DNA from: Gammaproteobacteria bacterium F7
Lineage (GTDB): Bacteria > Pseudomonadota > Gammaproteobacteria > Pseudomonadales > IMCC2047
Length of the DNA: 64,000 nucleotides
Direction: 5' to 3'
NCBI GenBank assembly: GCA_001593685.1
Contig: LUKI01000002.1
Span: forward strand, 16,077-80,076
The notes beneath the pieces were generated by a model. That model did not search any database. It saw only the letters and a program-made list of their open reading frames with translations, and was not told the origin of the DNA. Positions 23,131 to 57,672 of the stretch are shown here, piece after piece. The first letter of the stretch is position 1. Every line of letters starts with the position of its first letter. The position numbers were made by a program, and so were the translations under genes.

Positions 23131-23241
23131 AACAGTTACAGCCCTTGAAAAGCTCTCAGCTAGATTTTTGGGCTATAAACCGTAGCAAACTTGTTACAGT
23201 TACCATCATCCGAACCATTATTCTCTTGCCATTTACTATGG

Positions 23242-24477: not shown

Positions 24478-24687
24478 CGATCCATTACCTAAAATCAACA
24501 ATAGCTGAAATGTAGCACATCCTCAGCTGACAAACGCTTCCGTAGTAAATTAAAGAGAAATTCAACAACCCGGTTACATTGAAGTTAATTTATTCAAATA
24601 GCGTGCATAAAGCCCCTAATACTCTAGAATTACTGTCTTACCTGGATCACGAACCCACCGAATTATCGCGATTAAAAGAAAGGAAAA

Positions 24688-25707: not shown

Positions 25708-25756
25708 TGACAGCCAACTTTGTAGCGCAATTTTCTAACTACCTCTTAACGATCAA

Positions 25757-26797: not shown

Positions 26798-27025
26798 GCA
26801 AGAATAGCCGGGAAGTGCCTATGTAAGACGGGGCGTCCACAACTGTCCTAAGGTGCTCACACAAAATGCGACATAGTAGACGTCATTCTAGGTCAGGTGA
26901 CAGCGGGACCATCAATATCGTTAGTGGTGTTTCGATTCAGAGCCCAAGTCCTTCAACACCAGCCTAGTACACACTAATTCTTCAATTAGTGACAACAAAC
27001 TTCAGCCATAAAGAGCTACAAAACC

Positions 27026-28213
27026 GTGACAAACTCAACTCCCTGTTATATCTATCTGCTAAACAGTTTCCCGAACCTTTCGGAAACCTTTATTTCCGAT
27101 GAGATTCACTGTTTATTAAAGCAAGGGGTAGCGATCAAAGTATTTAGCTTACACAAGCCCGACCTTAGCACGGTACATCCCAACGCTAAAGAGATCTTGG
27201 AGTCTGGTGTCGTAGAGTATTTAGACCAGCCAACACCACTGAAAAAGCTGTCATCCCTCCTCCGCTTAATACTGATTAACCCTTCACGACTAGTGTCTCT
27301 TTTAAAACTGGATGTCGCGAGTTGGATAAAATTTGAAGCGCTCGGTTACTTAAGTAAGTTAACCTCCACCCACCCAGCCCATATCCATTGCCATTATGCG
27401 GCCCATTCATCGCAAATTGCCCTGGTGGTTAACCACTGCAAAGACATTCCTTTTTCGATAACCACCCACGGCTACGATGTGTTTTTTGAAGCGCCCGACA
27501 ATTACGACGTCCTAGCAAATTACGCGCAAACCATATTTACAATATCTAACTACAACCGTGAATATTTATTGCAGCATTATCAGCTCAATCCAGCCAAGCT
27601 CATGACCCGTTATTGTGGCGTTGACACCGCCAAGTTTAATACTATGGCATTCAAAGAAATTAACTTAAACGAGCCAATCAACATCCTAACCGTCGCTCGT
27701 TTACATCCTGTCAAAGGTCATAAAATCCTGCTAAAGGCCGCTGCTGAATTAAAAACACAATATTCCTGGCAGTTAAATTTTTGGTTTGCAGGCGATGGTC
27801 CACTACGCAATGAGTTGGAAGCATTAGCTAAACAACTGAACCTAACGGAGCACGTGCACTTTCTTGGAAACCAGTCACAGGATCAGGTAAGAGAGCTCAT
27901 CAACAACAGTCATCTGTTTGTACTACCCAGTCTTTCCGAAGGGATTCCTATCTCACTCATGGAGGCGATGGCTGGCAATACACCCGTCATTGGGCCTAAC
28001 ATTAACGGTGTCCCAGAACTCATCCAAAATAAAAAAGAGGGCCTTCTATTTGAGCCCGGTAATGTTGCCAGCTTAACTGATTCAATTTGTGAGATAATCA
28101 AAAATCATAAGCAGCTGAACACGATAACAACAAATGCACGCCTCAAAGTAGAATCAGTTTTTTCTCTAGAAAAAAATACATTGGAAAAGTTTTCCCAGTA
28201 TTCAAACCAATAA
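27026..28213 (+). CDS. Glycosyltransferase family 4 (WcaL-like)
   Basis: N-terminal YLLNSFPNLSETFI motif. The C-terminal PSLSEGIPISLMEAMAGNTPVIG is the GT4 EX7E region. GTG start. Confidence 0.8.
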   Translation: MTNSTPCYIYLLNSFPNLSETFISDEIHCLLKQGVAIKVFSLHKPDLSTVHPNAKEILESGVVEYLDQPTPLKKLSSLLRLILINPSRLVSLLKLDVASWIKFEALGYLSKLTSTHPAHIHCHYAAHSSQIALVVNHCKDIPFSITTHGYDVFFEAPDNYDVLANYAQTIFTISNYNREYLLQHYQLNPAKLMTRYCGVDTAKFNTMAFKEINLNEPINILTVARLHPVKGHKILLKAAAELKTQYSWQLNFWFAGDGPLRNELEALAKQLNLTEHVHFLGNQSQDQVRELINNSHLFVLPSLSEGIPISLMEAMAGNTPVIGPNINGVPELIQNKKEGLLFEPGNVASLTDSICEIIKNHKQLNTITTNARLKVESVFSLEKNTLEKFSQYSNQ

Positions 28214-28241
28214 AAATAACAACCAGAAAGGACTGCTAATC

Positions 28242-29438
28242 ATGAAAGTCGCTTTATTGGTAAACGAGTTTTTTACTAATGAACTTCACCTATACAATGG
28301 GTTTGGTGGTTACGGCATTATCGCTAGAAACTATGTAACTGAGTTTACTCCCTGTGAAGATATACATATTGAGACCATTATTGGCGTCAATAATAAGCCT
28401 CTGGCTCAAGAAAAAATTCTTGATGACAATAAAAAAGTTATCTTTTTCCCTGCCCGTCCTTCAGGGTTAAATATCAAATCAGCAATTAATTGGCTGGCAG
28501 AAAAAGTATCTAAAAACCCAGACCTATCAACCCGAAAATTTATCAATGAATATGATTATGACGGTTATCTCAGTCTTGAAATGCAAGGTGTTTCCTATGA
28601 GATCTTGAAAGCTGACCCTCACAGAAAGGTGATTTTGTGGCTTCAAGATCCAAGGCCTGAAAGTGACTGGGATGAACTCGATTCAATGTCTATTCCCCAA
28701 TCAGGTTACCGTCCAACAGAAAAAGTCCGACGTTTGGCTCGTAAGCTCCAAGACCAAAACCGATTAACCGTTATTAGCCAGGGTAAATTTTTAAATGCCA
28801 AGGGGCGTGAATTCTATCAACTCGATGACTCAATCGAAATCACCTATGTTCCCAATCCAATTTCAGTTGATTCGCACTTCGATATTGAAAAGCAGGACAA
28901 AGAAAACGCAATTGTTTTTCTAGGTCGGCTCGACTCAGTAAAAAGACCCTGGCTATATTTTGAAATTGCCAAAAATCTTCCTAACTATATATTTTATGTC
29001 TGCGGTCAATCGCACGAGCAAGATTTAGAAGAAGTCAAAGCTAAATATGCCGACATTCCAAACTTAAAATTTATGGGGCACGTGGATGGCGAAGAGAAAA
29101 TCAACCTTCTCAAAAAAGCAAAAATTCTAGTCAACACCTCTATACATGAAGCTGTCCCTGTATCCTTTCTTGAAGCTCTATCCTACGGGTGCCTTCTGGT
29201 CAGTTGTCAAAACCCTGATGACATGACTAGTAACTATGGCATAGCCATTGATCAAGTTTGGGGAGATGGTTATGAAATGGTCGAGCCTTTTTCACAAGCG
29301 GTTGAAACACTCATGGAAAATGATTCTTTTCGTAAAGAGAAAGCACAAAAGGCGGTAAGCTACATCCGAGACGTCCACTCAATTGAAAGCTTTACAAACA
29401 ATATGCGTAGAATAATTCGAAAAACATTCCAAAACTAA
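28242..29438 (+). CDS. Glycosyltransferase (GT-B, GT4-like)
   Basis: The C-terminal NTSIHEAVPVSFLEALSYGCLLVS is an EX7E-type motif. The gene is very AT-rich. Confidence 0.7.
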   Translation: MKVALLVNEFFTNELHLYNGFGGYGIIARNYVTEFTPCEDIHIETIIGVNNKPLAQEKILDDNKKVIFFPARPSGLNIKSAINWLAEKVSKNPDLSTRKFINEYDYDGYLSLEMQGVSYEILKADPHRKVILWLQDPRPESDWDELDSMSIPQSGYRPTEKVRRLARKLQDQNRLTVISQGKFLNAKGREFYQLDDSIEITYVPNPISVDSHFDIEKQDKENAIVFLGRLDSVKRPWLYFEIAKNLPNYIFYVCGQSHEQDLEEVKAKYADIPNLKFMGHVDGEEKINLLKKAKILVNTSIHEAVPVSFLEALSYGCLLVSCQNPDDMTSNYGIAIDQVWGDGYEMVEPFSQAVETLMENDSFRKEKAQKAVSYIRDVHSIESFTNNMRRIIRKTFQN

Positions 29439-29504
29439 AGATAGCTATACAGGCATTAAGATACTCTAGCTAGAGTGACTTAATTAAAAATCGAGGGATT
29501 GATC

Positions 29505-30245
29505 ATGCTGAAGAAATCTATCAAAAGCTTTTTGTTATTTTTAACTGCGCCTATAAGATTCGCAGTTCGATATGAACTTTATAATACCGCTTCAGTTCGC
29601 CGCGATGTTAATCAAGCGCTGAGTCAACGTGATATAAACCAGGTTCTCTTAAAGAAAGCTCTGGAAAGTACGGCCGACTATGTTGCAAAAGAAATGGCGC
29701 ATGTCGACTCAGTAACTTCGAAATTTGACTTGCTTACCCTGGCAGTTGATAAGGCCAATCTAGCCAATAAGTTAATCTGTGAATTTGGTGTTTACTCTGG
29801 CCATACAATCAACCACATAGCATCACTGACTGACGAGATAGTTTTCGGCTTTGATTCATTTGAAGGATTACCAGAGCGTTGGCGTGATGGTTTTGAAAAA
29901 GGGCACTTTAAGAAAGACGGTTTACCAAGTACCCGAGAGAATGTAGAACTAATTGTCGGTTGGTTCGATGAAACACTACCTAAATTTATCGAAGAACATC
30001 CAAAGCCGGTTGGTTTTCTTCACATTGATTGTGACCTTTACTCATCAACAAAAACAATTTTTGATCTGCTCACGCCATACATTCAGCCTGGATGCGTCAT
30101 TGTTTTTGATGAGTATTTTAACTACCCCGGATGGGAGGAAGGTGAGTTTAAAGCGCTACACGAATTTTTAAGAAAAACTGGATTAAACTATGACTATTTA
30201 GGTTTTAACCGCCTAAGTGAACAAGTGGCCATCATTATTAAATAG
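29505..30245 (+). CDS. Class I SAM-dependent methyltransferase, TylF/MycF (macrocin O-methyltransferase)-like
   Basis: EFGVYSG, FDSFEGLP and LHIDCDLYSST motifs typical of the TylF family. ATG 29505 lies 6 nt after GAGGGA. Confidence 0.75.
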   Translation: MLKKSIKSFLLFLTAPIRFAVRYELYNTASVRRDVNQALSQRDINQVLLKKALESTADYVAKEMAHVDSVTSKFDLLTLAVDKANLANKLICEFGVYSGHTINHIASLTDEIVFGFDSFEGLPERWRDGFEKGHFKKDGLPSTRENVELIVGWFDETLPKFIEEHPKPVGFLHIDCDLYSSTKTIFDLLTPYIQPGCVIVFDEYFNYPGWEEGEFKALHEFLRKTGLNYDYLGFNRLSEQVAIIIK

Positions 30246-30261
30246 CTACCCCTCTGAAAAC

Positions 30262-31272
30262 TTAATTATTAGACACTTTCTCTTTAATAATCTTAAACGG
30301 AAAAACCAATAACAAAGGCAATACTGAAGGCACCATTTTCAAGATGTCTGCCAGCAAGTGCATAGGAACCGGTTTAAAATGTCCAATCCTATGCACCAAA
30401 TCACGCACTACGGACTCTTTCAAATTACGAATGGTTTTCCTATTCGCGGCCAATAAATCAGCAGGCAAATGATAAAAGCGCTCCACCGATGTCCAAATAA
30501 ATAACTCATTTCGAATACGTTGCAGAGACTTATCGGTTCCCCAACCAGACCCCGAATAAATATTAATTCCCGTACCACAATGGCAGTGTATCTGTGTCGA
30601 AAAGCACCATTTAGCACCTTGATCACTCAAATCCATCCAAAAGAAAAAGTCCTGCCCATTATAAAACTCTTCACGGAAACGCAATTTTGGGAAGGTCCTA
30701 TATCGATAAACGGCATTTGAAGTCCCAATAACACCGCCACCATCAGCAACAATATGGTCAATCATCGAAATATTCATTCCGAATATTTCTCTACTTTCAT
30801 CAAGTAATTGATGCTCAGTCACTTTCAAGGTGCCAATACGGGTGAAGTTACTAATGTCCTTATATAGCGCGGCAAAATGATCTGAAAAATAGGCATCAAA
30901 CCCCATTTCAAGTGCTGTCACCGCGTTTTCAAGATGCTCAGGCACCCATTCATCATCTGAATCTAGAAAAGCAACGTACTCGATACCTTCCGGAAGGTTA
31001 TTTAATGCCCTATTTCTAGCACTACCGGCACCGCCATTAGGCTGTTCAATTAGAAGAATTGAGCTCTGTTCTTTAACATCAAGCACCTCCACTTCCTGTC
31101 GAGCTGGCAGTGGCGAACCGTCATCAACGATAACCACCACTAATCTATCGGCAATTGTTTGGCTTAGTGCCGATCGAATCGCTTTTGTTAAAACACCCAC
31201 ACTTTTTTGATAAAAAGGTACAACAACCGCAATATCTACAGCCGCCACTTTGTCAGTTTGCTTATTTTCCAT
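30262..31272 (-). CDS. Glycosyltransferase family 2
   Basis: VVVPFYQ..., VVIVDDGSP and FLDSDDEW (DXD) motifs. Confidence 0.85.
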   Translation of the reverse strand: MENKQTDKVAAVDIAVVVPFYQKSVGVLTKAIRSALSQTIADRLVVVIVDDGSPLPARQEVEVLDVKEQSSILLIEQPNGGAGSARNRALNNLPEGIEYVAFLDSDDEWVPEHLENAVTALEMGFDAYFSDHFAALYKDISNFTRIGTLKVTEHQLLDESREIFGMNISMIDHIVADGGGVIGTSNAVYRYRTFPKLRFREEFYNGQDFFFWMDLSDQGAKWCFSTQIHCHCGTGINIYSGSGWGTDKSLQRIRNELFIWTSVERFYHLPADLLAANRKTIRNLKESVVRDLVHRIGHFKPVPMHLLADILKMVPSVLPLLLVFPFKIIKEKVSNN

Positions 31273-31469
31273 TTCTGTCCAAAGGTTAAAATTTATATGG
31301 CTCAGCCAAAGTAAATGATGGCTTATTTATGCTTGGCGCTAAGTTAACACGCCACAACCATTATTTGGGGATTGAGAGCTACTTTTTTAGCTATCCGTCG
31401 GGCAGCTCAAAGGTTTTATGCTAAAGTTCACGGATAACATTTCAACCACCTTTTTCACAGCGATCTTTC

Positions 31470-32927
31470 ATGACATCTATTCGAAAATCTCTTTTTTGGT
31501 CACTGTGTGAAAGGCATCTCAGCCAAGTTATCACTCTAATAAGCTCAATGATTCTTGCCCGGCTACTAACGCCGGAAGAAATTGGTATATTCTCTCTTTG
31601 TGCGGCTTTCCTTGCTATCGCCAGTATTTTCAGAGATTTTGGCGTCAGCGAATACATAATTCAGGAAAAAGACCTAACAAAAGAAAAACTTAGTGGTGCC
31701 TTTGCTCTAACGGCTATTTCAGCCTGGAGCATGGCATTACTTCTTTATTTGGCTCGCCCGGCAATTGCAGACTTTTATAACGAACCAGCCCTGACCGACA
31801 TACTGAATATTCTTTGTATCAACTTTTTAATTCTACCTTTAGCCTCACCCGCCTTTGCTGTTTTAAACCGGGAAATGGCATTTCGCAGTATTTTTATTAT
31901 CCAGTTAAGTACCACCGCCGTGCATGCCATCGTTGCGGTAGGTCTAGCTATGCAAGGCCACAGCTACATGAGCCTGGCTTGGGCATCGCTTTTAAGTATT
32001 GTGGCGCAAACACTTATCATCACTTTTTTCCGTCCAAAATATTCAATGATTTTACCTAACCCCAGATATATGTCTCATGTCTGGAAATTTGGCCTGATGT
32101 TCAGCTCATCACGCACCATTGAAGTAGTGATGAACAATTCCCACGAATTTATTATTGGTCGGCAATTTGGCTTTGAAGCATTGGGCTTGTTCAGCCGAGC
32201 ATTGGGGTTAATCAACTTATTCTGGCAGAACGTCACCTCAGCGATTACAAGGGTGGCTGCCCCTGCTTTTGCCTCAACACATCGTCAATCAACGGAGGAT
32301 TTACAGTTCCTCTATAAAAAGTCCGTTTCAATTTTTACCGTTATTGCCTGGCCATTTTTCTGTTTCGCCATTTTTGAATCGAAAGGCATTATTCTGCTGT
32401 TGTTTGGTGATCAGTGGCTTGCAGCTGCCCCTATCACTTCTATCATGGCAACTGGCACGCTCATTGGATCAGTGTGTGCTCTAGCGCCCAACGTACTAAT
32501 AGCAACCGGGCAAGTAAAACGACGGTTACACATTAGTCTAATGGTAGCCCCTGTACATATTGTTGGTGTTACCATCGCTTCATTTTTCGATTTATGGGCG
32601 ATTGCTTCTGTTTGGATTTTTGGGTCCGTATTTGCCCTCGCCCTCTACAATTATCATCTATCTAAAACCATTGGTTTTAGTTATCGACAAATCATAGAAA
32701 GCGCGAAAGAAAGCGCGCTAGTAGCCTTAGTATGCACCGCAGTATTGCTCGTAGTCACCCAAGCTTTAAATACAACCGGCATGAATGCCTTGATCATGTT
32801 ACCTATCAAGGCATTTTTCTTTAGCCTAGTTTGGCTATTCGCTATCTATATATTCAAACACCCAATTCGGTCAGAAATTGATGACCTGTTGGCACAGGTG
32901 AAAGACAAACTTGCTAAGAAGACTTAA
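31470..32927 (+). CDS. Polysaccharide flippase (Wzx / MOP superfamily)
   Basis: 485 aa with about 12-14 TM helices. The N-terminus ...LISSMILARLLTPEEIGIFSL is typical of the polysaccharide biosynthesis protein family. Confidence 0.8.
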   Translation: MTSIRKSLFWSLCERHLSQVITLISSMILARLLTPEEIGIFSLCAAFLAIASIFRDFGVSEYIIQEKDLTKEKLSGAFALTAISAWSMALLLYLARPAIADFYNEPALTDILNILCINFLILPLASPAFAVLNREMAFRSIFIIQLSTTAVHAIVAVGLAMQGHSYMSLAWASLLSIVAQTLIITFFRPKYSMILPNPRYMSHVWKFGLMFSSSRTIEVVMNNSHEFIIGRQFGFEALGLFSRALGLINLFWQNVTSAITRVAAPAFASTHRQSTEDLQFLYKKSVSIFTVIAWPFFCFAIFESKGIILLLFGDQWLAAAPITSIMATGTLIGSVCALAPNVLIATGQVKRRLHISLMVAPVHIVGVTIASFFDLWAIASVWIFGSVFALALYNYHLSKTIGFSYRQIIESAKESALVALVCTAVLLVVTQALNTTGMNALIMLPIKAFFFSLVWLFAIYIFKHPIRSEIDDLLAQVKDKLAKKT

Positions 32928-33819
32928 TCCTGGAAACAAACTCGTAAGTACAATCAATCACCTCATCCATTGACGACCTTTTAGAAAACGTATGATCCGC
33001 TTCAGGTAGCGTTTTTTGGTGACAATTTTGGCTTTTCGTAATCTTCCGCCAACGCTTCTCAGCGTTAATAACATCTAAAAATTCAGCGGCAGTCAGGTCG
33101 TTACCGCTTATTATCAAGAGCACAGAATTAGGAAAGCTTTTCAAACTCTGATAAAAACGGTCCGGCAACGATAAATTATTTAACCCTGCTGGTAGCTCAG
33201 CATTGTGCTCAAGAACAGGGCTCTCTGATTTAGTCTGGGTATTAAAAGACTTCTGACACAGCGACATTAATGATCGCAGAGAACCACTTAAATCAAATTT
33301 TCCTGACACTAGTTTTGACCAAAACTCCTTGTTCATTAGGCGGCTCAAATAATAGTGTTTTAGGTATGCTTTGGCTTCACCCTGCTCAGTTCTAATCCAA
33401 GGATTAGCCAACACCAGTGCCACAACACGCGGGTCACTCGGCGCATAAAAACTTGCGGCAGAAGCGCCATCACAGAGCCCCCAAATAACGACTTCTTTTA
33501 TCGTAGGAACCAGTTCGAAAAAGGTATTTATTGCGGCATGAATATCTTCATCAATATTTTCAAAACCAGGGAATTCACCCTCACTGTCGCCCATACCACG
33601 GCAATCAAAACGGAAGACAGGTATACCCTGAGCAGCCAGTCCTCTAGCGAGCAATAAAAACTGGCGATGACTTCCAACTCGATACTGAGGCCCGCCAACA
33701 ACAATGACAACACCACGGTTTGAATCACTTTCAGCTGAATGAGCAACACCCATCAGCTGTTTATTACTACAACTGAAAATAACAGGTGTTTCGTCAAGTG
33801 AAGAGGCGCTATTAGTCAT
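32914..33819 (-). CDS. Alpha/beta-hydrolase, 'hydrolase 1, exosortase A system-associated' type, with Cys at the nucleophile elbow
   Basis: GGPQYRVGSHRQF...FRFDCRGMGDSEG. The nucleophile elbow reads G-L-C-D-G (Cys116, nt 33472-33474) instead of GxSxG. The 1-versus-2 assignment is from memory of TIGR03100/03101. Confidence 0.7.
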   Translation of the reverse strand: MTNSASSLDETPVIFSCSNKQLMGVAHSAESDSNRGVVIVVGGPQYRVGSHRQFLLLARGLAAQGIPVFRFDCRGMGDSEGEFPGFENIDEDIHAAINTFFELVPTIKEVVIWGLCDGASAASFYAPSDPRVVALVLANPWIRTEQGEAKAYLKHYYLSRLMNKEFWSKLVSGKFDLSGSLRSLMSLCQKSFNTQTKSESPVLEHNAELPAGLNNLSLPDRFYQSLKSFPNSVLLIISGNDLTAAEFLDVINAEKRWRKITKSQNCHQKTLPEADHTFSKRSSMDEVIDCTYEFVSRIKSS

Positions 33820-33826
33820 ACTTGGA

Positions 33827-34636
33827 CTACTCAGAAAATAATGACGTTGTTTGGGAAATTAAATTTTCAGCCCATACTATTTCTTGATTAGACCAAAACT
33901 GCTTTCCCTCTACAGCTTCAGATTTAATGGCCAAGCTATGAGCGTCTTTCCATTCTGAAAGCTGTTTCTGGGAAGGTATTGCTAATTCTTTTTTTGTTCC
34001 CGTTACTTCCAGCCAATACAGCCCTTTCAAGTCTTCAGGCAATGACATTGACTTCATGCTACTTTGGGCAATTCCAGCAAACAGTTCTGGTGATAAATCA
34101 TAACCAGCTATTTCAAGCGGAGTACCATCATCCAACTGAGCTTTGAGAGATTTTACAGTTTCCTTTTCACCGCCGCCCATCATGTTGGCTGCAAGTCTCA
34201 AACGCAGAAACTGCTGCGAGAACAGCTCCCCGTTAATCACGGGTTGCCAAAATAACAGCTGTTTAACAGCCGGATTAGCAGGCACGCAGGATAGCGCTAA
34301 AAGCGCTCCAAGCCGTAAACCCCATAACGTAATATCTTTATATTCACGACGCTGTAACCAGTCGACCAATAAGCCAATATCCCGCTGCCAAATATGCCAC
34401 CTAGCCTCGACAAACTCACCTTCGCTATCACCAGTCCCAAATAAATCAGCCAGCAGTACTCCATAACCACACTGAGCTAATTCTCGTGCCTGTTGAACCA
34501 CCATGTGGCGAGACTTATTCATCTCTTCGGCAAAAGCTGGCATATGAAGAACAGCGCCTTTGTTTTGACTACCTTGAGCAGGAAAATAAAGACAAAACAA
34601 TTTGCCTGCACAGCCGTCGAAAAAGAATGGTTGCAT
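33827..34636 (-). CDS. Alpha/beta-hydrolase-fold protein, 'hydrolase 2, exosortase A system-associated' type, elbow lacks Ser
   Basis: PAFAEEMNKSRHM...DLFGTGDSEGEF. The nucleophile-elbow position reads G-L-R-L-G (Arg in place of Ser). Confidence 0.7.
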   Translation of the reverse strand: MQPFFFDGCAGKLFCLYFPAQGSQNKGAVLHMPAFAEEMNKSRHMVVQQARELAQCGYGVLLADLFGTGDSEGEFVEARWHIWQRDIGLLVDWLQRREYKDITLWGLRLGALLALSCVPANPAVKQLLFWQPVINGELFSQQFLRLRLAANMMGGGEKETVKSLKAQLDDGTPLEIAGYDLSPELFAGIAQSSMKSMSLPEDLKGLYWLEVTGTKKELAIPSQKQLSEWKDAHSLAIKSEAVEGKQFWSNQEIVWAENLISQTTSLFSE

Positions 34637-34647
34637 CGTTAAGCAGA

Positions 34648-34887
34648 TCAGACTTTTGAGTTCACAAATTCCGCTAAACTACCGACAGTTTCAAAAATCG
34701 AAGCATCGATTTCATCATCGTCAACCATAAAACCATAACGCTCTTCCAACGCTGTCAATACAGAGACAACAGCCATTGAATCAAACTCTGGAATAGCACC
34801 GAGTACAGCGGAGCTTTCATCTAAATCGCCTTCAGGCAAGCTTAATGTATCGGCTAAGACTTCAATGACATCATTTTCGACAGACAT
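34648..34887 (-). CDS. Acyl carrier protein
   Basis: 79 aa and acidic, with a phosphopantetheine-site motif FDSMAVV. Start placed at ATG 34887, preceded by AAGGAA; the ORF-track start is 12 codons upstream. Confidence 0.8.
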   Translation of the reverse strand: MSVENDVIEVLADTLSLPEGDLDESSAVLGAIPEFDSMAVVSVLTALEERYGFMVDDDEIDASIFETVGSLAEFVNSKV

Positions 34888-34983
34888 AAAACAAATTCCT
34901 TGCAGTGCTAATAATAGCGACAATATTTAAATCATTTTTTAGAAATTAAATTATACTTAGCCACATATAAATTTTGCGACGGG

Positions 34984-36237
34984 ATGCGATTATACCCAAT
35001 AATGGACACGACCAAAGAAAACGACCTCACTTATGAGGAAAATTCTAACAATTACCCACCTGCAAAGGCGCCAATTTCACCCGTTCTCTCATTTTCCAGT
35101 TTTTCGGGAAATGATCATCAAAACGCACCTTCAATCGCCAGCGCCAAATATAAACGTTTTGTCACCAGTGGACGAATCGCCACGGCACTCGCCCTAATCA
35201 ATGAAAACATTGGCGCAGGCGATGAAGTTCTTGTGCCAGCCTACCACTGTGAATCTATGGTAGCGCCGGTTCGTCATACTGGTGCAACGGCTGTGTTTTA
35301 CCGAATTAATGCTGACACCAGTATAAACATAGACTCAATTACTGAGCTGCTCACCCCAAAAACAAAAGTAATTGTTGTGACGCACTTTTTTGGTTTTCCG
35401 CAAAATGTTAAAGAATTAAGGTCTTTTTGCGATCAGCATGACCTGATTATGATTGAAGACTGTGCGCATAGTTTTTTTGGTAAATTTTGCGGCCATCCAG
35501 TGGGCTATTATGCGGATTACGCCATTGCTAGCACGATGAAGTTTTTCCCCGTATTTGATGGGGGTCTCCTCGCGTCAAATAAGCATCCGCTTAACCAAAT
35601 CAAACTTGAAAAGCCCAGCGTTCACATGGAAGTAAAGGCTTTTTTAACCATCATTGAACGCGCTATTTCATTCAACCGGTTGTCATTCGTCGGAAAAATT
35701 TTAGGTTTTTTCACGCGTATCAAAGATTATCTTTGGAGCGCAATAAAAGCTGTTTTTTTCAAAGATCGTGGGTCAGCTTCAATTGGCCCTAGCGCGGCAG
35801 AGGGAGGGTTCTCATTTGATCCGGCCTGGTTAAATACCAAAGCAAGTAAAGTCAGCCGTTTTATCATCAAAAAAACGGCCATGACTGAGCTTGTAAAAAA
35901 GCGCCGTCAAACCTATATGCGATATGTTGAAGCCCTGAAAGACATCGAAGGCTGCCATATATTGCATACAAAACTGGCTGATCACATCGCTCCAGTCGTC
36001 GTTCCTGTTTACTTTAATCACTGCGCACAGGTCTTCGATAAGCTCAAAAAGAAAGGTGTTCCAATATGGCATTTCGGTGAGTTTTTGGACCCAGAAGTGA
36101 GCGTTTCCACGTGTCCTATTAGCTATGAATACTCTCAAAAAGTCATTCAATTTCCCTGTCACCAAGAGCTAAAAGAAAAGGAGATTGAGTGGGTGATTAG
36201 AGAGATAAAAGCCACATGCTTAGCAGCAAACAAATAG
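34984..36237 (+). CDS. DegT/DnrJ/EryC1/StrS-family (PLP sugar aminotransferase-like) protein
   Basis: GDEVLVPAYHCESMV, VVTHFFGFP...IEDCAHSF and a candidate PLP-Lys in ASTMKFF. Divergent from the ACP gene. Confidence 0.6.
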   Translation: MRLYPIMDTTKENDLTYEENSNNYPPAKAPISPVLSFSSFSGNDHQNAPSIASAKYKRFVTSGRIATALALINENIGAGDEVLVPAYHCESMVAPVRHTGATAVFYRINADTSINIDSITELLTPKTKVIVVTHFFGFPQNVKELRSFCDQHDLIMIEDCAHSFFGKFCGHPVGYYADYAIASTMKFFPVFDGGLLASNKHPLNQIKLEKPSVHMEVKAFLTIIERAISFNRLSFVGKILGFFTRIKDYLWSAIKAVFFKDRGSASIGPSAAEGGFSFDPAWLNTKASKVSRFIIKKTAMTELVKKRRQTYMRYVEALKDIEGCHILHTKLADHIAPVVVPVYFNHCAQVFDKLKKKGVPIWHFGEFLDPEVSVSTCPISYEYSQKVIQFPCHQELKEKEIEWVIREIKATCLAANK

Positions 36238-36342
36238 AAGTATTGATATATATCCCCTTACTTCTTGTCTAAAGCTGTCCAACCAAATAACCTTCTTAGT
36301 ATATTTTTTAAATTTTCGTGGTTTTATTGCTGGGTATTTACA

Positions 36343-37098
36343 ATGACTAAATCAAAATCAACAAACGTCAAAAAAAATAATATTTTCTACTTAGCTAATG
36401 TACTAATAGTACTAACAACCTCTTTAATAGCAAGTAGCACGATATACGCTGTACCGCCTAAAGACCCGAGCTTATTAGTCTCAACAGCCCAACCACTTCC
36501 GGATCCGGGCTGGCCAGGATTAACTCTCACAGGCGTTACATGTAAAGCACACTACTCAAAACCATCAAACTTTGGCCCTTTTGACTACACGAACCCGGGA
36601 CATCGAGGTACAGAGCTATTTTTAGTTGAGTCAACACACTTCACCAAAGATGTAGAGACGTTAAAAAGAGGCCATTCTTCAACTGAACCTGACGGAGATT
36701 TAGACTACACCTTAAGAGCCTTCCCAAACCATCATCGTGCGCTATATGCAATGAGCCGATACCAGTTAAAAACGAAAGGAAAAACGAATTATGGCAAGCC
36801 TGAGTGCTACTTCCAGCGAGCAATAAAACTCAAGCCAAACGATCACCGTGTTTACCAGTTATATGCACACTATTTAAAGAAAAAGAAAATGCTCTCAATG
36901 GCAGTAAAAACCTATCAGCAAGCGCTAACTTATAAACCTGCTCCGGCGGACATGTATTACAGCTTGGGTATGCTCCAGTTTAAAATGAAGGATTATTCCG
37001 GTGCCGTTGAAAACGCAAAGCTAGCCAAAGACGCCGGCTTTAAAAAAACAACATTAATCAAAAAACTAAAAGCAGCAAATCAATGGCCATCCAGTTAA
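36343..37098 (+). CDS. Secreted TPR-like repeat protein of unknown function
   Basis: Signal peptide from M27 of the ORF. The C-terminal half has TPR-like helical pairs (YFQRAIKLKPNDHRVYQLYAHYL..., YQQALTYKPAPADMYYSLGML). Start uncertain; a TTG at 36265 is possible. Confidence 0.5.
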   Translation: MTKSKSTNVKKNNIFYLANVLIVLTTSLIASSTIYAVPPKDPSLLVSTAQPLPDPGWPGLTLTGVTCKAHYSKPSNFGPFDYTNPGHRGTELFLVESTHFTKDVETLKRGHSSTEPDGDLDYTLRAFPNHHRALYAMSRYQLKTKGKTNYGKPECYFQRAIKLKPNDHRVYQLYAHYLKKKKMLSMAVKTYQQALTYKPAPADMYYSLGMLQFKMKDYSGAVENAKLAKDAGFKKTTLIKKLKAANQWPSS

Positions 37099-37126
37099 CT
37101 GGCTATTTATAGAAGGAACCTAATTC

Positions 37127-38950
37127 GTGGCTAGTATTTCTGGTATTGTGTCTAAGGGCTTAGACGCAGAAAACTACAATTTATCGACTATAACCTCGCC
37201 TGATAAGAGCAACTGTATCCAGTCTGATCGAATCTTTGCATCGCAGCAGGATGGCGGCCATCTTTACCAACTGGGCAGCATTGTCATTTTATTTACAGGC
37301 GCTCCTTACTGGCAGGAGAATAGTCCTGAAAACAGCTTAACGAATCCAGCTATTCAGGAAAAGCTTGCTACTACATACCTTGAGCAGGGTAATCAGGTAT
37401 TAACGAGCATTCGTGGCCATTTCGCACTTGCTATAGTCAACCTATCATCTAATGACGCATTACTTGCCACTGATCGTATTGGAGTTCACCGCCTTTACTG
37501 GCACCAAACGGCTTCTGGTGATCTGATTTTCAGCACTCGCCTTAGAAATATTAAAGCAATCTGCAATCAAGAGTTTAATATTTCCAGTAATGCCGTTTAT
37601 AACTATATGTATTTTCATATGGTACCAACTCCGCTCAGCATCTATGAAGGCATTCAAAAATTACCTCCTGCACAAGCACTATCATTTAGTGAAAGCTCGG
37701 CAACCTTAACCTCGTCCTGGGTGCCTAAATTTGTAGAAGAAAATAACTGCGATGAAGATGCTTTATCAGCAGAGTTGCTTACCACAATAGAACAATCTGT
37801 TTCCTCATCTTTAAAGCCAGAAAATAAAAATGCGGCATTCCTAAGCGGGGGCATTGATAGTTCAACGGTTGTGGGCATGATGTCCCGTATTCAAGAAGGA
37901 ACAACCGATAGTTACTGTATCGGGTTCGATGCTGAACAATATGATGAAACGCCCTTTGCCAGAATCACTGCTGAACACTTCTCGGCAAAGCTTCACGAGC
38001 ACAGTGTGACGCCTGATGACGTGGTAAGCATCGTCCCCAAAATTGCACAAACCTATGAGGAACCTTTTGGAAATTCATCAGCTGTCCCAGCCTATTACTG
38101 TGCAAAATTTGCCCATGACGATGGTGTAACTACAATGCTGGCCGGTGATGGTGGCGACGAACTATTTGCCGGTAATGAGCGCTATGCCACACAGGATTAT
38201 TACCAATATTATTTATCAGTACCTAAAGCTCTGAGAAAATACGTATTTGACCCTATTTTTCTCAACCTGCCAAATTGGTTTCCTCTATCATCCAAGATTA
38301 AAAGCTATGTTTCCCATGCGAATATCCCGCTGCCAGAACGTTTACAAGTTTATAATTTCTTACATCGCCACCCTCCAGAGGAGTTGTTTAACCACAACTT
38401 CTTAAGGTCAGTAGATGTCAACTTACCTATAACGCTCCAAAAAAAGCAGTATCACAAACCAGATAACGCATCACCACTCCACCGCATGCTGTACTTTGAT
38501 TGGCAATTCACTCTTGCCGATAATGATTTACGCAAAGTAAGCACTATGTGTGAATTAGCCAATATACATGTCGAATATCCCTTGATATCTGACGAACTGC
38601 TCGAGCTATCCCTCCAAGTCCCTCCAACATTAAAACTGAGGGATAAAAAACTTCGCTATTTCTTCAAAAAAGCCATGCGAGGCTTTCTCAACGATAAAAC
38701 TATCAGTAAATCAAAACACGGTTTTGGCCTCCCATTTGGTGTTTGGCTAAGTGACTATGAACCACTCAATAAGCTGGCCTACGACAGTTTGGAGAACCTG
38801 AAAAAACGTGAAATCTTCAACCCTGAATTCATTTCGAAAGCCGTCGACATGCATTCAAATCAACACGCTGCCTACTATGGAGAGCTTATCTGGATCATGA
38901 TGATGCTGGAGCTTTGGTTACAAAAAAATATTGACGAGCCTCATGTCTAA
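37127..38950 (+). CDS. Asparagine synthetase B-family protein lacking the N-terminal Cys nucleophile (ATP-dependent amide-forming enzyme)
   Basis: GTG start 8 nt after AAGGAA gives MASISGIV..., versus canonical MCGIAGI. There is no HRGPD motif. The PP-loop AFLSGGIDSS and the synthetase domain are intact. Confidence 0.75.
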   Translation: MASISGIVSKGLDAENYNLSTITSPDKSNCIQSDRIFASQQDGGHLYQLGSIVILFTGAPYWQENSPENSLTNPAIQEKLATTYLEQGNQVLTSIRGHFALAIVNLSSNDALLATDRIGVHRLYWHQTASGDLIFSTRLRNIKAICNQEFNISSNAVYNYMYFHMVPTPLSIYEGIQKLPPAQALSFSESSATLTSSWVPKFVEENNCDEDALSAELLTTIEQSVSSSLKPENKNAAFLSGGIDSSTVVGMMSRIQEGTTDSYCIGFDAEQYDETPFARITAEHFSAKLHEHSVTPDDVVSIVPKIAQTYEEPFGNSSAVPAYYCAKFAHDDGVTTMLAGDGGDELFAGNERYATQDYYQYYLSVPKALRKYVFDPIFLNLPNWFPLSSKIKSYVSHANIPLPERLQVYNFLHRHPPEELFNHNFLRSVDVNLPITLQKKQYHKPDNASPLHRMLYFDWQFTLADNDLRKVSTMCELANIHVEYPLISDELLELSLQVPPTLKLRDKKLRYFFKKAMRGFLNDKTISKSKHGFGLPFGVWLSDYEPLNKLAYDSLENLKKREIFNPEFISKAVDMHSNQHAAYYGELIWIMMMLELWLQKNIDEPHV

Positions 38951-39914
38951 ACTAATTCCTGACTTTGTTTTCCGCCGGTTATTTGATGCGCTATCGCTCT
39001 CTGAATCAAAACTAAACATTCTTATCTATCACCGAGTTTTAGCTGAACCGGATCCATTACGCCCGTGGGAAATAGATGCTAAGAACTTTGAGAATCATCT
39101 AAGCTGGCTGACAAATACCTTTAATGTCATCCCTCTCCGTGATGGCGTGCAAGCGATGCGTGATGGCACTTTAAAAAATCGTAGCCTGTGCATTACTTTC
39201 GATGACGGCTATTTAGACAACCTTGAGGTTGCACTACCTCTTCTAAAAAAATATAAAATGCCAGCAACTTTTTTTTGCACATCAGCCTTTATTGGTGGTG
39301 GCATGATGTGGAATGACCAGATAATAGAAGCCGTTCGAAGCTGGCCTTCAGAAAGCATCAGCGTATCTGAATTGGCTTTAGATAATTTACCCTTAAATAC
39401 GCTTGAAGATCGCGCAAAAAGCGCCGAGAAAATACTTAATAAGCTGAAATACATTGAGAAAACAGGGCGAGCGAATATTGCTCAAACACTGTTTGAAGAG
39501 TCTGGGGCTAACCCAGGCCAGCAGATGATGTCCGCTAAAGAAATTCTTCACATGCATAATCAGGGAATGGAAATCGGTGGCCACACTCACAACCACCCTA
39601 TTTTATCCAATCTAAATAGCGATAATGCCCGTTACGAGATTGAACATAACAAGAAAACCCTAGAGGCCATTATTAACCAGAAAATCAGCTCTTTTGCATA
39701 CCCGAACGGCAAACCTGGAAAGGACTTTTTAGTCGAACATAGCCAAATGGTTTCCGACTTAGGCTATGAAACTGCTGTATCAACTTCACCCGGCGTCAGC
39801 GACCATGACACCAACACATTGCAACTCCCTCGTTTCACCCCTTGGGATAAGTCGAGAGACAAGTTTTTACTCCGTTTGGCTCTAAATCACTTTCAAAAAA
39901 CATCTTTCGCCTAG
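38943..39914 (+). CDS. Polysaccharide deacetylase (NodB/CE4 family)
   Basis: CITFDDGYLDN, GGHTHNHP and AYPNG motifs. The start overlaps the AsnB-like stop by 8 nt (20 nt if the TTG at 38931 is used). Confidence 0.8.
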   Translation: MSKLIPDFVFRRLFDALSLSESKLNILIYHRVLAEPDPLRPWEIDAKNFENHLSWLTNTFNVIPLRDGVQAMRDGTLKNRSLCITFDDGYLDNLEVALPLLKKYKMPATFFCTSAFIGGGMMWNDQIIEAVRSWPSESISVSELALDNLPLNTLEDRAKSAEKILNKLKYIEKTGRANIAQTLFEESGANPGQQMMSAKEILHMHNQGMEIGGHTHNHPILSNLNSDNARYEIEHNKKTLEAIINQKISSFAYPNGKPGKDFLVEHSQMVSDLGYETAVSTSPGVSDHDTNTLQLPRFTPWDKSRDKFLLRLALNHFQKTSFA

Positions 39915-46914: not shown

Positions 46915-48264
46915 TTAAAGCGCATGACTAATGACGTAACGCATTTTACCAGAGCGCTCAGCTGCAATATCAGCCACCTTATCGATGACAATCTCAACCG
47001 TCTGCCCTAACCGTTGTTGAAAACCCGTTTTAATCTGTAGCTCTTTTTGCTCATCAAAATTCGCATTCACCACCACCAACACTCGTGTTTTATCACGCGA
47101 CTCCTGCACAATTTTGAACTGCTCGACTCCTTCCAGGTCGCGAACAATATAAATCAGTGCTAACCCGTGCATCAGCGTGCCGTCCTGCGCAACAATAAAG
47201 TCCGTGGTGCGCCCTTCGATCTCGGCTAATACAGGCAAGCCTCGTCCACAGCTGCAAAGCTCATCACTTAACACCCCAATGTCACCCGTTTTATAACGGA
47301 TAAAAGGGTAATGCTGTGTCGCCAAATGCGTTACAACAATTTCACCGCTCTCACCTGCCGGTAATACATGCCCCTGCTCATCGACTATTTCGACAATAAT
47401 ATCTTCCGACGTGATGTGCAGACTACCGGACGGACATTGATGGGCAATAAACCCTGCATCACGCCCGCCATAGCCATTCGCCACCGGGCAGGCAAAGGTT
47501 TTCTCAATCACGTCTCGTTGATGGTCATAGAGCCGCTCTGAGGTGACAAACACCACTTTAATGCCCAAGTCGTTAAGCTGAATATTTCGCTCTGCTGCAT
47601 GTTTAGCTAACAACGCAAAGGCCGAGGGGTAACCAAACAACATCTTAGGCCGAAAGCTTTTGATCTCTTCGATAAAGCCATCCAGTTTTGCCTCGGTCAT
47701 TTCAAACGCTGGCAGCAGCTTTGTGCGCAGCAATTTATCACGCACAAGACGGACATAGTCCTGGGAGCCCAGCTCAATCGGTGATCCCCACAACACAATT
47801 TCCCGGTCTCCTATATCCACGTCCCACCAACGTGTTGCCCTCCATTTAGCGGCAACATCATGGCTAACCCTTTCATTGCCGATGTAAAAAACCAAAGGCT
47901 CGCCACTGGAACCACCGGTATTAAAGCGTGCCAAGCCAGACGCGTTATCGGCCTTTAAATCATCGCTGTTCTCGCGAATAACCGGCTTGGTTAAAAAGGG
48001 TAGTTTCTGGAGATCGGCGGCTGTTTTGATGCTGTCGACATCCAAACCAAGATCGGTAAACAGGCGCTGATAGTAGGGTACGTGTTCGTTCACACTCCGC
48101 AAAAACGACTGCAAACGCTGGTTTTGGTAGTCACTTAGCTTTTCTGGTGACCACCACTGGCTTTGCTCCATGGCATTTTTAACAGCCACGGTATCGTGCT
48201 TCTTGAGCTTCTCATGCACAGGAAACACACAGCGTGTAATGAAGTTGGTATAGAGACTGGCCAT
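46915..48264 (-). CDS. Phenylacetate-CoA ligase family (PaaK/CapK/F390-synthetase-like) adenylating enzyme
   Basis: NTGGSSGEPLVFY P-loop variant, GYGGRDAGF, YKTGDIG and a C-terminal GKMRYV motif, typical of PaaK-like proteins in capsule loci. Confidence 0.7.
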   Translation of the reverse strand: MASLYTNFITRCVFPVHEKLKKHDTVAVKNAMEQSQWWSPEKLSDYQNQRLQSFLRSVNEHVPYYQRLFTDLGLDVDSIKTAADLQKLPFLTKPVIRENSDDLKADNASGLARFNTGGSSGEPLVFYIGNERVSHDVAAKWRATRWWDVDIGDREIVLWGSPIELGSQDYVRLVRDKLLRTKLLPAFEMTEAKLDGFIEEIKSFRPKMLFGYPSAFALLAKHAAERNIQLNDLGIKVVFVTSERLYDHQRDVIEKTFACPVANGYGGRDAGFIAHQCPSGSLHITSEDIIVEIVDEQGHVLPAGESGEIVVTHLATQHYPFIRYKTGDIGVLSDELCSCGRGLPVLAEIEGRTTDFIVAQDGTLMHGLALIYIVRDLEGVEQFKIVQESRDKTRVLVVVNANFDEQKELQIKTGFQQRLGQTVEIVIDKVADIAAERSGKMRYVISHAL

Positions 48265-57648: not shown

Positions 57649-57672
57649 AATTAATGGTCAGAAAAGTAAAGT

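Follow-up and report, generated by a model that had tools for sequence, protein, structure and literature searches.

The window, a stretch of 64,000 nucleotides, encodes an AsnB-family synthetase, AsnX, that lacks the N-terminal Cys and overlaps at its stop codon with a gene for a CE4 deacetylase, CE4b. This raises two questions: what an AsnB-type enzyme without a working glutaminase might do in a polysaccharide locus, and whether the two overlapping genes form a dedicated pair, as an original prediction made from the sequence had proposed, with re-acylation of a freed sugar amine or amidation of a uronic acid as its possible chemistry. Coordinates of the features discussed are collected in Table 1.

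Table 1. Features of the AsnX locus in window coordinates.
Feature	Position	Strand	Remarks
AMP-ligase and PLP decarboxylase	18773-21651	+	ligase 18773-20413, decarboxylase 20410-21651; front end of carrier-protein cassette; within the AsnX operon in Porticoccus loci
PF13480 (FemAB/BioF2-like) acyltransferase	24688-25707	+	between DegT and TPR in the module of relatives
Part of exosortase-A-associated cassette	32914-34923	-	hydrolase 1, hydrolase 2, carrier protein
Exosortase-A-associated hydrolase 1	32914-33819	-	
Exosortase-A-associated hydrolase 2	33827-34636	-	
Exosortase-associated carrier protein	34648-34923	-	
DegT/DnrJ/EryC1-type aminotransferase-like gene	34984-36237	+	opens co-directional run DegT-TPR-AsnX-CE4b
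TPR protein	36265-37098	+	N-terminal hydrophobic anchor; directly 5' of AsnX in 7/7 loci of the window's bacterial family
Shine-Dalgarno-like AAGGAA	37113-37118	+	8 nt 5' of AsnX GTG
In-frame TAA	37121-37123	+	two codons 5' of AsnX GTG
AsnX, Cys-less, glutaminase-dead AsnB-family synthetase	37127-38950	+	607 aa, GTG start; Pfam/NCBIfam, alignment, AF2
Degenerate Ntn-glutaminase-like domain of AsnX	37127-37726	+	residues ~1-200; fold kept, nucleophile and glutamine-binding motifs lost
PP-loop SGGIDSS of AsnX	37844-37864	+	residues 240-246; invariant in family
CE4b, NodB/CE4 de-N-acetylase, PgaB/IcaB/PplD type	38943-39914	+	323 aa from ATG 38943; alternative TTG 38931
Overlap ATGTCTAA of CE4b start with AsnX stop	38943-38950	+	8 nt
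CE4 motif 1 TFDDGY	39195-39212	+	predicted catalytic base and metal-binding Asp; invariant in orthologs
CE4 motif 2 HTHNH	39582-39596	+	His214 and His218, predicted metal-binding
Canonical XrtA/PEP-CTERM amidotransferase	50577-52505	-	MCGIAGIF start; TIGR03108, 1060 bits
Canonical FemAB-family protein (TIGR03019) and XrtA-system CE4 deacetylase (TIGR03006)	56614-58512	-	

AsnX has lost its glutaminase site and kept its synthetase site

The GTG start originally assigned to AsnX on the strength of the upstream AAGGAA holds. The N-terminus that it produces is kept in the closest homologs, with P0002 and P0003 also beginning MASISGIV and P0004 beginning MASITGIV, which supports this start. An upstream start that would give the protein an N-terminal Cys, the observation that would have spoken against the prediction, is ruled out because the frame is blocked by the in-frame TAA.

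When AsnX was aligned with the Cys-bearing paralog from the same window, the nucleophile Cys2 was found replaced by Ala. The HRGPD and RLSIID stretches are deleted or replaced, NGEVYN has become TGAPYW and SDTE has become PAIQE, whilst the Pfam GATase_7 match is confined to residues 82-143. The prediction had noted MASISGIV in place of MCGIAGI and the missing HRGPD; the loss in fact extends to all glutaminase motifs. It is also shared by the whole family. None of 150 representative clusters at 50% identity has a Met-Cys start, HRGPD or NGE[IVL][YF]N, and none of the 120 closest homologs has a Met-Cys start. The family's nucleophile column most often holds S, T, N, F, A, P or I. Many relatives begin with G-L-C-G-W, and the Cys of this N-terminus was considered as a substitute nucleophile and rejected, as an ungapped alignment with MCGIAG places it three positions too late; AsnX itself has Ser there. 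Since the same losses recur throughout the 120 closest homologs and the 150 clusters, they are not a chance or pseudogene feature of AsnX. Together with the strongly conserved synthetase motifs, they rule out a pseudogene or local accident.

In the other half of the protein, Pfam Asn_synthase (PF00733) covers residues 218-599 (E 1.6e-70). The PP-loop is intact, and EPFGNSS, GDGGDELFAGNERY, LRKV and KHGFGLPFG are likewise intact and common to the canonical paralog; identity between the two proteins is ~27%. Across the AsnX family the PP-loop, EPFGNSS, GDGGDELFAGNERY, LADNDLRKV and KHGFGLPFG show little or no variation. The AF2 model (pLDDT 91.2, pTM 0.90) has the two-domain AsnB fold, and its best PDB matches are TsnB9 (TM 0.71-0.74), AsnB, beta-lactam synthetase and carbapenam synthetase. 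Measured against class II (Ntn) amidotransferases, AsnX lacks the first-residue Cys and the glutamine-binding motifs but possesses the PP-loop and the Asn_synthase domain. Motif alignment and family-wide conservation thus agree with the original view of AsnX as an AsnB-type synthetase with a dead glutaminase, otherwise intact.

Existing profile models place AsnX poorly. Its best NCBIfam match, TIGR03108, begins at residue 82 and reaches 282 bits against a cut-off of 816.9, and TIGR01536, the model for glutamine-hydrolysing asparagine synthase, gives 209.3 bits, below the curated cut-off of 267.1. The lasso cyclase model NF033535 scores 111.6 bits (cut-off 525) and the macrolactam cyclase model NF033561 49 bits (cut-off 300). 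The lasso match is generic, since the Cys-bearing paralog scores higher on the same model.

The AsnX family and its place in XrtA loci

Judged by its scores, AsnX belongs to a large, discrete, unnamed family for which NCBIfam has no dedicated model. Against the AsnX query, members reach 366-1084 bits, compared with 173-219 bits for canonical TIGR03108 paralogs. Co-occurrence of AsnX, CE4b and XrtA was sampled in 120 gammaproteobacterial families, in which 17 genomes carry AsnX. XrtA and a canonical WbpS-type amidotransferase are present in 15 of these 17, compared with XrtA in 7 of the 103 genomes without AsnX, and a canonical Cys-bearing paralog accompanies AsnX in 15-16 of the 17. Conversely, about three quarters of the sampled genomes with a canonical XrtA amidotransferase also have AsnX. 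Most exosortase (XrtA) loci for slime polysaccharides in Gammaproteobacteria include the family, as a near-core accessory. Cultivable bacteria with an AsnX locus include Neptunomonas marina HPM-16, Haliea salexigens DSM 19537, Sedimenticola selenatireducens and Thioalkalivibrio versutus AL2.

The window conforms to this pattern, with AsnX located in an exosortase A polysaccharide locus. The canonical MCGIAGIF paralog is present where the original prediction had put it but lies on the minus strand rather than the plus strand, which has 19 stops over the same interval. The window's true TIGR03006 member (57673-58512, minus strand) scores 443 bits. The TIGR03108 amidotransferase, the TIGR03019 FemAB protein and the TIGR03006 deacetylase make up the core Vim-like trio. 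We also considered AsnX as a lasso cyclase for an orphan PqqD/kinase cassette (11.8-14.1 kb) and rejected this on its low, generic lasso score and its position among sugar genes 23 kb away. There is no lasso precursor peptide or B-protease beside AsnX, and its neighbours are polysaccharide genes.

Elsewhere, the commonest neighbours of AsnX are the exosortase-associated carrier protein and hydrolases 1 and 2. XrtA-locus markers were found in 43 of 46 AsnX loci with full flanks, and the carrier protein and hydrolases in 33. In Porticoccus loci one strand carries the genes for ligase, decarboxylase, ACP, hydrolase 2, hydrolase 1 and AsnX in an unbroken row. The module order in relatives is DegT, PF13480, TPR, AsnX, CE4b. 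Another locus (L107) reads Wzy_C, TPR, PF13480 and AsnX, the last only 3 nt past the PF13480 stop, followed by a convergent CE4b; the genome concerned is without hydrolase 1. Finally, protein P0198 is a fusion of PF13480 and AsnX. Rosetta-stone and neighbourhood links thus connect AsnX to FemAB-like transferases.

CE4b as a frequent, non-obligatory partner

The predicted overlap between the AsnX stop and the deacetylase start was found as described, though the start codon is most likely the ATG at 38943, from whose Met homologs align, rather than the TTG at 38931. The CE4 motifs read earlier as FDDGYLDN and HTHNHP were recovered as TFDDGY and HTHNH, and TFDDGY, H214 and H218 do not vary among 27 and among 32 orthologs. 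PF01522 matches CE4b with E 3.8e-26, and the AF2 model (pLDDT 95) has PplD, PgaB and IcaB as its closest structures. CE4b has the NodB fold, the Asp-Asp of motif 1 and, in motif 2, the His-x3-His; it is apparently an active de-N-acetylase. Its score on TIGR03006, the model for the XrtA system deacetylase, is 23.5 bits, below the cut-off of 276.2.

The original prediction of AsnX and CE4b as a dedicated functional pair is not supported. Their overlapping layout occurs only in the window and in one relative (G003, 76% identical), and in five other loci from the same bacterial family the genes are separated by 18-65 nt. In more distant loci with full flanks, a CE4b ortholog lies within 8 kb of AsnX in 11 of 46 and adjacent to it in 4. 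The 120-family sample gives a similar picture, with a CE4b ortholog in 9 of the 17 AsnX genomes and none found in the other 8, and with AsnX missing from 3 of the 12 genomes that have a CE4b ortholog. CE4b tracks the carrier-protein hydrolase more closely (10 of 12 genomes) than it does AsnX. An apparent CE4b fusion in G110, an open frame of 1175 aa, looks to be just a long frame, the large neighbouring ORF being Mfd/TRCF. Neighbourhood and co-occurrence counts thus rule out an obligatory pair, and CE4b is a frequent, non-obligatory partner of AsnX. CE4b is missing from 8 of the 17 AsnX genomes and hydrolase 1 from 9, so the basic reaction of AsnX is independent of either. The context of polysaccharide tailoring does stand, with AsnX adjoining an apparently active CE4 enzyme. 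The overlap is a lineage-specific arrangement, in a predicted operon, of a larger module for sugar-amine tailoring with parallels to the Wbp/Vim pathway.

Proposed reaction and likeness to known systems

We infer that AsnX is probably an ATP-dependent, glutamine-independent amide synthetase. It would adenylate a carboxylate, and a nitrogen nucleophile not derived from glutamine would then attack the acyl-adenylate. The carboxylate would most likely be C6 of a hexosaminuronic acid, in the repeat unit of an XrtA-type exopolysaccharide or in its precursor. We propose it because uronic acids are the substrate type of the nearest relatives, the WbpS/TIGR03108 uronamide formers; the argument is weak at an identity of only ~27% between AsnX and the paralog. 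The nucleophile could be free ammonia, or else an amine or an aminoacyl group supplied via the neighbouring tailoring genes. The module parallels the Wbp/Vim linking-sugar pathway one for one, with the DegT-like aminotransferase corresponding to WbpE, PF13480 to VimA and CE4b to VimE, and with AsnX in the WbpS position. CE4b would probably free the sugar amine, and the exosortase-associated ligase, decarboxylase, carrier protein and two hydrolases could be an alternative source of the aminoacyl group. A Wbp/Vim-like route of sugar-amine and uronate tailoring by the DegT-like, FemAB-like, CE4 and AsnB-like enzymes and the carrier cassette is plausible.

It is possible, though less likely than not, that AsnX is a missing ligase joining the amino group of a carrier- or FemAB-delivered amino acid (e.g. 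of the beta-alanine type) to the uronic acid carboxylate. It is also possible, though we doubt it, that AsnX is a plain ammonia-dependent uronamide synthase, converting a second uronic acid to the primary amide with NH4+ or with ammonia passed on by the paralog in a mixed dimer. AsnB enzymes accept ammonia in vitro, the nearest family of AsnX is the WbpS-type TIGR03108, and AsnX is present in genomes without CE4b and the carrier cassette. The near-constant presence of the canonical paralog also fits simple ammonia-dependent amidation or ammonia borrowed from that paralog. However, an enzyme using free ammonia would not need the folded, catalytically empty N-domain that has been kept over very long distances, and two enzymes for one primary amide per locus would require two distinct uronates. 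The PF13480 fusion and tight coupling, along with membership of the carrier-cassette operon, suggest a more specific nucleophile.

To our knowledge, every characterised Cys-less AsnB homolog forms intramolecular amides. An analogous AsnX would join an amine freed by CE4b, or an aminoacyl amine, to the carboxylate of the same sugar unit, and both the fold match to beta-lactam and carbapenam synthetase and the adjacent amine-freeing deacetylase are in line with such a lactam. We nevertheless regard it as very unlikely, given that AsnX is frequent without CE4b, that AsnX matches beta-lactam synthetase in sequence only marginally (E 7.8e-5), that the lasso model gives 112 bits against a cut-off of 525 and that we know of no sugar lactam from XrtA-type polysaccharides. 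Hardly any weight attaches to the idea of a non-catalytic pseudoenzyme, serving as scaffold or substrate-binding partner for the canonical amidotransferase or the carrier-protein cassette. A dead glutaminase half and an almost invariable association with the canonical paralog would suit this role, but across more than 150 clusters no part of the protein is as conserved as its ATP-pyrophosphatase and synthetase motifs, which is unexpected for a scaffold.

Environmental bacteria and the floc formers of wastewater commonly carry XrtA/PEP-CTERM loci. Proteins of the AsnX family go by generic names alone, for example 'asparagine synthetase B family protein'. Our findings correct the misleading annotation 'asparagine synthase (glutamine-hydrolysing)'. 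An amide synthetase of the kind proposed would extend the few Cys-less amide synthetases of the AsnB fold by a polysaccharide-tailoring branch; no characterised Cys-less AsnB homolog from a polysaccharide locus turned up in a literature search. That AsnX cannot use glutamine and keeps company with carrier-protein, FemAB-like and CE4 genes offers a concrete, testable starting point for working out how the polysaccharide or linking sugar is built. If AsnX is an amino acid-uronate ligase, its product would be either a uronamide with an N-substituent or an amide cross-link, placed on an exosortase-type polysaccharide or PEP-CTERM linking sugar. The AsnB fold would thereby gain a new substrate class, and the widespread 'exosortase A-associated' cassette its first assigned end product.

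Among known enzymes, the uronamide-forming amidotransferases of TIGR03108 type (WbpS, WbqG, PGN_1234) provide the best-scoring model for AsnX. They share its two-domain AsnB architecture, its synthetase motifs and its kind of locus, near CE4 and FemAB-like genes. Unlike them, AsnX is without the N-terminal Cys and glutamine-binding motifs, and it falls in a separate score class at ~27% identity. In beta-lactam and carbapenam synthetase (PDB 1jgt, 1q15), whose fold is that of AsnB, the glutaminase-like N-domain is non-functional; these enzymes form amides in an ATP-dependent manner without glutamine, as AsnX probably does. Only the fold is held in common: the phmmer match to 1jgt covers a partial stretch and TM is 0.53-0.57 (query-normalised). 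These synthetases cyclise small-molecule antibiotic precursors, whereas AsnX is located in polysaccharide loci. Lasso and macrolactam cyclases are also Cys-less AsnB homologs, which form ATP-driven isopeptide bonds, but AsnX lies far below the cut-offs of their models. The hydroxyamidotransferase TsnB9 (PDB 7ylz) is both the best structural match of AsnX and its best PDB sequence match (E 6.8e-9, 16% identity). This AsnB-like enzyme transfers a nitrogen nucleophile that is not plain ammonia; unlike AsnX, it keeps a working N-terminal nucleophile domain, and its substrate is a polyketide acid.

A parallel for the locus as a whole is the Wbp/Vim linking-sugar pathway (PMC7468200), known from Porphyromonas gingivalis and Tannerella forsythia. 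In P. gingivalis, VimE (CE4), VimA (FemAB-like) and WbpS (TIGR03108-type) build 2-N-seryl-3-N-acetylglucuronamide, and according to the same authors this type of trio is present in XrtA loci (PMC7468200). Like that pathway, the window brings together DegT-type, CE4, FemAB-like and AsnB-like enzymes. Besides the canonical trio it has a second, diverged set, and differs in that the AsnB-like member of this set, AsnX, is incapable of using glutamine. Across AsnX loci, moreover, a carrier-protein cassette is often found in place of the FemAB-like enzyme or in addition to it.

AsnX and its protein family

AsnX, the Cys-less AsnB-like protein, begins at a GTG with AAGGAA 8 nt ahead of it, as the original prediction held. 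The frame cannot be extended upstream because an in-frame TAA lies two codons 5' of this GTG, excluding the possibility that an upstream start restores an N-terminal Cys. The N-terminus, MASISGIV, is kept in the closest homologs (64-76% identity), which supports the GTG start. In an alignment with the Cys-bearing paralog of the window, the nucleophile Cys2 is replaced by Ala in AsnX, HRGPD and RLSIID are deleted or replaced, NGEVYN has become TGAPYW and SDTE has become PAIQE. The predicted lack of both Cys and HRGPD was thus confirmed. The two proteins share the PP-loop SGGIDSS (AsnX residues 240-246), EPFGNSS, GDGGDELFAGNERY, the LRKV lysine and KHGFGLPFG. By Pfam, the Asn_synthase domain is complete (residues 218-599, E 1.6e-70), in agreement with the predicted intact PP-loop and synthetase domain, and only the last third of the GATase domain is recognised (residues 82-143). 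The canonical paralog, which starts MCGIAGIF, is present where predicted, with its strand corrected to minus.

A confident AlphaFold model of AsnX, built on an alignment of 39 sequences, showed both domains folded (pLDDT 91.2, pTM 0.90). Its top PDB match was TsnB9 (TM 0.71-0.74), and the other best matches were E. coli and human asparagine synthetase, beta-lactam synthetase and carbapenam synthetase. Across family representatives, residues 1-80 are the least conserved (mean top-residue frequency 0.23) and the ATP-site region, residues 216-360, the most (0.61). Taken together, conservation, model and motif losses indicate that AsnX keeps the AsnB architecture and predicted adenylation machinery, and that the glutaminase site, judged by sequence, is lost family-wide. 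The nucleophile column is occupied by S, T, N, F, A, P or I across the family. The Cys of an N-terminal G-L-C-G-W motif found in many relatives was rejected as a nucleophile; it lies three positions past that column, is not conserved and is Ser in AsnX itself.

The closest 120 proteins in a collection of 5.8 billion were 43-76% identical to AsnX, and none has a Met-Cys start. HMMER, run exhaustively over 1.84 billion representatives, returned at least 150 clusters (50% identity) scoring 366-584 bits, and none of those listed has an MC start, NGE[IVL][YF]N or HRGPD. Canonical TIGR03108 paralogs from the same and related genomes scored only 173-219 bits against the AsnX query, with no scores between these and family members. 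Because of this gap, the AsnX family is discrete at the level of sequence. No NCBIfam model covers it: TIGR03108 comes closest, at 282 bits where the cut-off is 817, and AsnX relatives carry generic names in their sources. Cys-less AsnB-fold amide synthetases are already known, namely beta-lactam synthetase, carbapenam synthetase and lasso cyclases. By membership tests AsnX belongs to none of the three, nor to TIGR03108 or TIGR01536, and is a separate, uncharacterised family within this known kind. A literature search found no study of a Cys-less AsnB-type enzyme in polysaccharide loci. One ortholog, in genome G106 (C3:138065-139696), contains a single in-frame TGA, possibly through decay, recoding or a sequencing error.

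The deacetylase CE4b and the layout of the locus

The original prediction that the AsnX stop overlaps the start of a deacetylase, CE4b, stood, with an overlap of 8 nt; the CE4b start was corrected. It is most likely ATG 38943 (context ATGTCTAA), and CE4b homologs align from this Met. The CE4b model (pLDDT 95) most resembles PplD, PgaB, IcaB and BpsB, de-N-acetylases acting on GlcNAc-containing polymers. Between motifs 1 and 2 lies an insertion of ~80 residues (about 120-200), modelled as ordered helices and strands, with M122, W123, N124, D125, E129, K169, Y170 and R176 invariant. TFDDGY, H214, H218, FAYPNG, R297, W301 and several insertion residues are invariant in the orthologs (27 from fetched loci, 32 from the protein collection). 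CE4b looks catalytically competent and lacks an obvious signal peptide. It is distinct from the XrtA-system deacetylase (TIGR03006), which is encoded by a separate gene in the window. The ortholog in genome G044 (C38:62445-63344) carries one in-frame TAA, which may reflect decay, sequencing error or recoding.

Features of the window, with positions and strands
Feature	Position	Strand	Remarks
Tailoring block	21763-39914		
PF13480 FemAB/BioF2-like acyltransferase	24688-25707	+	farther upstream
Acyl_transf_3 gene	25757-26797		adjoins PF13480 gene
TPR protein	36265-37098	+	
AsnX	37127-38950	+	607 aa, GTG start
CE4b	38943-39914	+	CE4/NodB enzyme, PF01522 E 3.8e-26
XrtA core, set a	45.6-64 kb	-	O-antigen-ligase-like gene, PaaK-like ligase, several GT4 glycosyltransferases
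XrtA core, set b	45.6-64 kb	-	canonical amidotransferase, XrtA-EpsI, FemAB-family protein, TIGR03006 deacetylase
XrtA core, set c	45.6-64 kb	-	WecB, ATPase, outer-membrane protein, tyrosine kinase, chain-length determinant
PaaK-like adenylate-forming ligase	46915-48264	-	in XrtA core
Canonical amidotransferase	50577-52505	-	TIGR03108
XrtA-system deacetylase	57673-58512	-	TIGR03006

The exosortase A (XrtA) locus is complete within the window. Separate from its minus-strand core, a second block comprises co-directional DegT-like, TPR, AsnX and CE4b genes (gaps of 27, 28 and -8 nt), with carrier protein, hydrolase 2 and hydrolase 1 divergent from this run and an AMP-ligase/PLP-decarboxylase pair also upstream. 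The PF13480 gene, whose ortholog in relatives lies between DegT and TPR, is displaced ~10 kb upstream here. The TPR protein carries a hydrophobic N-terminal anchor or signal, and its real start is perhaps an internal Met (MTKSKS...); its gene is conserved directly upstream of AsnX in the bacterial family of the window and lies near AsnX in distant loci as well (22 of 80). G+C is 41.5-43% in the tailoring block, 47% in the XrtA core and 50% in the ligase/decarboxylase pair. This low G+C, together with AsnX identities of 52-76% between same-genus genomes, fits a variable, exchangeable cassette.

A second complete module in the same assembly (214 contigs, 86% complete), outside the window on contig C53 (locus L091, 1-10645), is a new finding. 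It encodes CE4b (49% identical), AsnX (54%), TPR, DegT-like, PF13480, carrier protein, hydrolase 2 and hydrolase 1. The AsnX encoded there has its nearest relative in a genome of another genus (G008, 66%) rather than in the same-genus genome G001 (52%). The module represents a cassette of old paralogous or horizontal origin, unless its contig is mis-binned.

Conserved neighbours and co-occurrence

Pattern scanning, with one genome per species, turned up 590 stretches encoding an AsnX relative. Nearly all of the best 80 of these 590 are gammaproteobacterial (Porticoccaceae, Halieaceae, Sedimenticola, Thioalkalivibrio, Ectothiorhodospira, Methylococcales, Woeseiaceae). Of the 46 loci flanked by 6 kb or more on each side, 43 contained XrtA-locus markers, 33 the carrier protein and hydrolases, and 11 a CE4b ortholog within 8 kb of AsnX. 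Genes within 600 nt of AsnX were the carrier protein (12), hydrolase 1 (10), TPR (7), hydrolase 2 (5) and CE4b (4). When the two genes immediately flanking AsnX in these loci were matched against Pfam, they came out as alpha/beta hydrolases (14), MBOAT (7), TPR, GT4 and CE4 (4). In Porticoccus loci an uninterrupted run on a single strand leads from ligase through decarboxylase, carrier protein, hydrolase 2 and hydrolase 1 to AsnX. TPR-AsnX-CE4b was co-directional in all seven loci from the window's bacterial family, AsnX and CE4b overlapping only in the window and G003 (76% identity) and being 18-65 nt apart in the other five.

Co-occurrence was counted in 120 gammaproteobacterial genomes of at least 90% completeness, sampled evenly with one genome per family. 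AsnX was found in 17, XrtA above cut-off in 22, canonical TIGR03108 above cut-off in 19, and hydrolase 1 and CE4b in 12 each. We quantified the association of AsnX with XrtA (15/17 AsnX genomes against 7/103 without AsnX) and the canonical amidotransferase (15/17, a sixteenth having a copy cut by a contig end), treating these counts as descriptive because the sampled genomes are related to one another. CE4b is tied more closely to the carrier-protein hydrolase than to AsnX, a new observation: ten of the 12 co-occur with hydrolase 1, and AsnX and CE4b occur together in nine genomes, AsnX without CE4b in eight and CE4b without AsnX in three. Two genomes are flagged unpublished, G150 (counted as hydrolase 1 and XrtA positive, AsnX negative) and G072 (only among sub-cut-off TIGR03108 matches); the conclusions are independent of both. 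All five further genomes reached from loci have AsnX; three have both CE4b and hydrolase 1, neither of which was found in the other two. In a phylum-level sample, 1/150 genomes had the family.

Proposed role in amide formation

AsnX would still form amides in an ATP-dependent manner but be severed from glutamine. Its nucleophile may be free ammonia; alternatively, neighbouring genes may supply an amine or aminoacyl group. In one metagenomic protein (P0198, 1032 aa), a PF13480 FemAB-like domain (residues 189-327) is naturally fused to a Cys-less AsnX-type protein (residues 511-1027). The G044 locus runs Wzy_C, TPR, PF13480, AsnX, starting 3 nt past the PF13480 stop, and convergent CE4b; hydrolase 1 was not found in this genome. 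In relatives of the window the order is DegT, PF13480, TPR, AsnX, CE4b, and PF13480 genes also lie within Halieaceae-type modules. Both the fusion and the operon shared with the carrier cassette speak for a specific amine as nucleophile rather than for plain ammonia-dependent amidation. The latter stays alive because AsnX also occurs without both partners and is almost always accompanied by the canonical paralog. By analogy with beta-lactam synthetase, AsnX could possibly form an intramolecular lactam, a reading for which we found no specific support.

Halieaceae-type loci (L009, L010, L011, L026, L029, L042, L051) have a DltB/AlgI-like MBOAT membrane acyltransferase directly upstream of and divergent from AsnX, and two successive hydrolase 1/hydrolase 2 pairs plus carrier protein downstream. 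Their MBOAT, carrier protein and ligase recall the Dlt D-alanylation system. The PaaK-like VpsH of Vibrio cholerae was assigned as adding glycine to the GulNAcA carboxylate of VPS (2026 study, PMC13463779). The PaaK-like ligase of the XrtA core may likewise be an amino-acid:uronate ligase, in which case the locus would have three distinct amide-forming enzymes.

The canonical XrtA core contains a CE4/FemAB-like/WbpS-type amidotransferase trio. In Porphyromonas gingivalis, their homologs VimE, VimA and WbpS de-N-acetylate, aminoacylate and amidate a di-N-acetyl-glucuronic acid, producing the linking sugar by which secreted proteins are attached to the surface, and the authors noted this trio in XrtA loci too (PMC7468200). 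Since the AsnX block repeats this logic in diverged form, through a DegT-like enzyme, CE4b, the PF13480 enzyme and AsnX, we read AsnX as a putative WbpS-position enzyme in a second tailoring route, its substrates suggested by context alone. The AsnX block also has a carrier-protein route for acyl or aminoacyl delivery, as an addition or, in some genomes, as a substitute.
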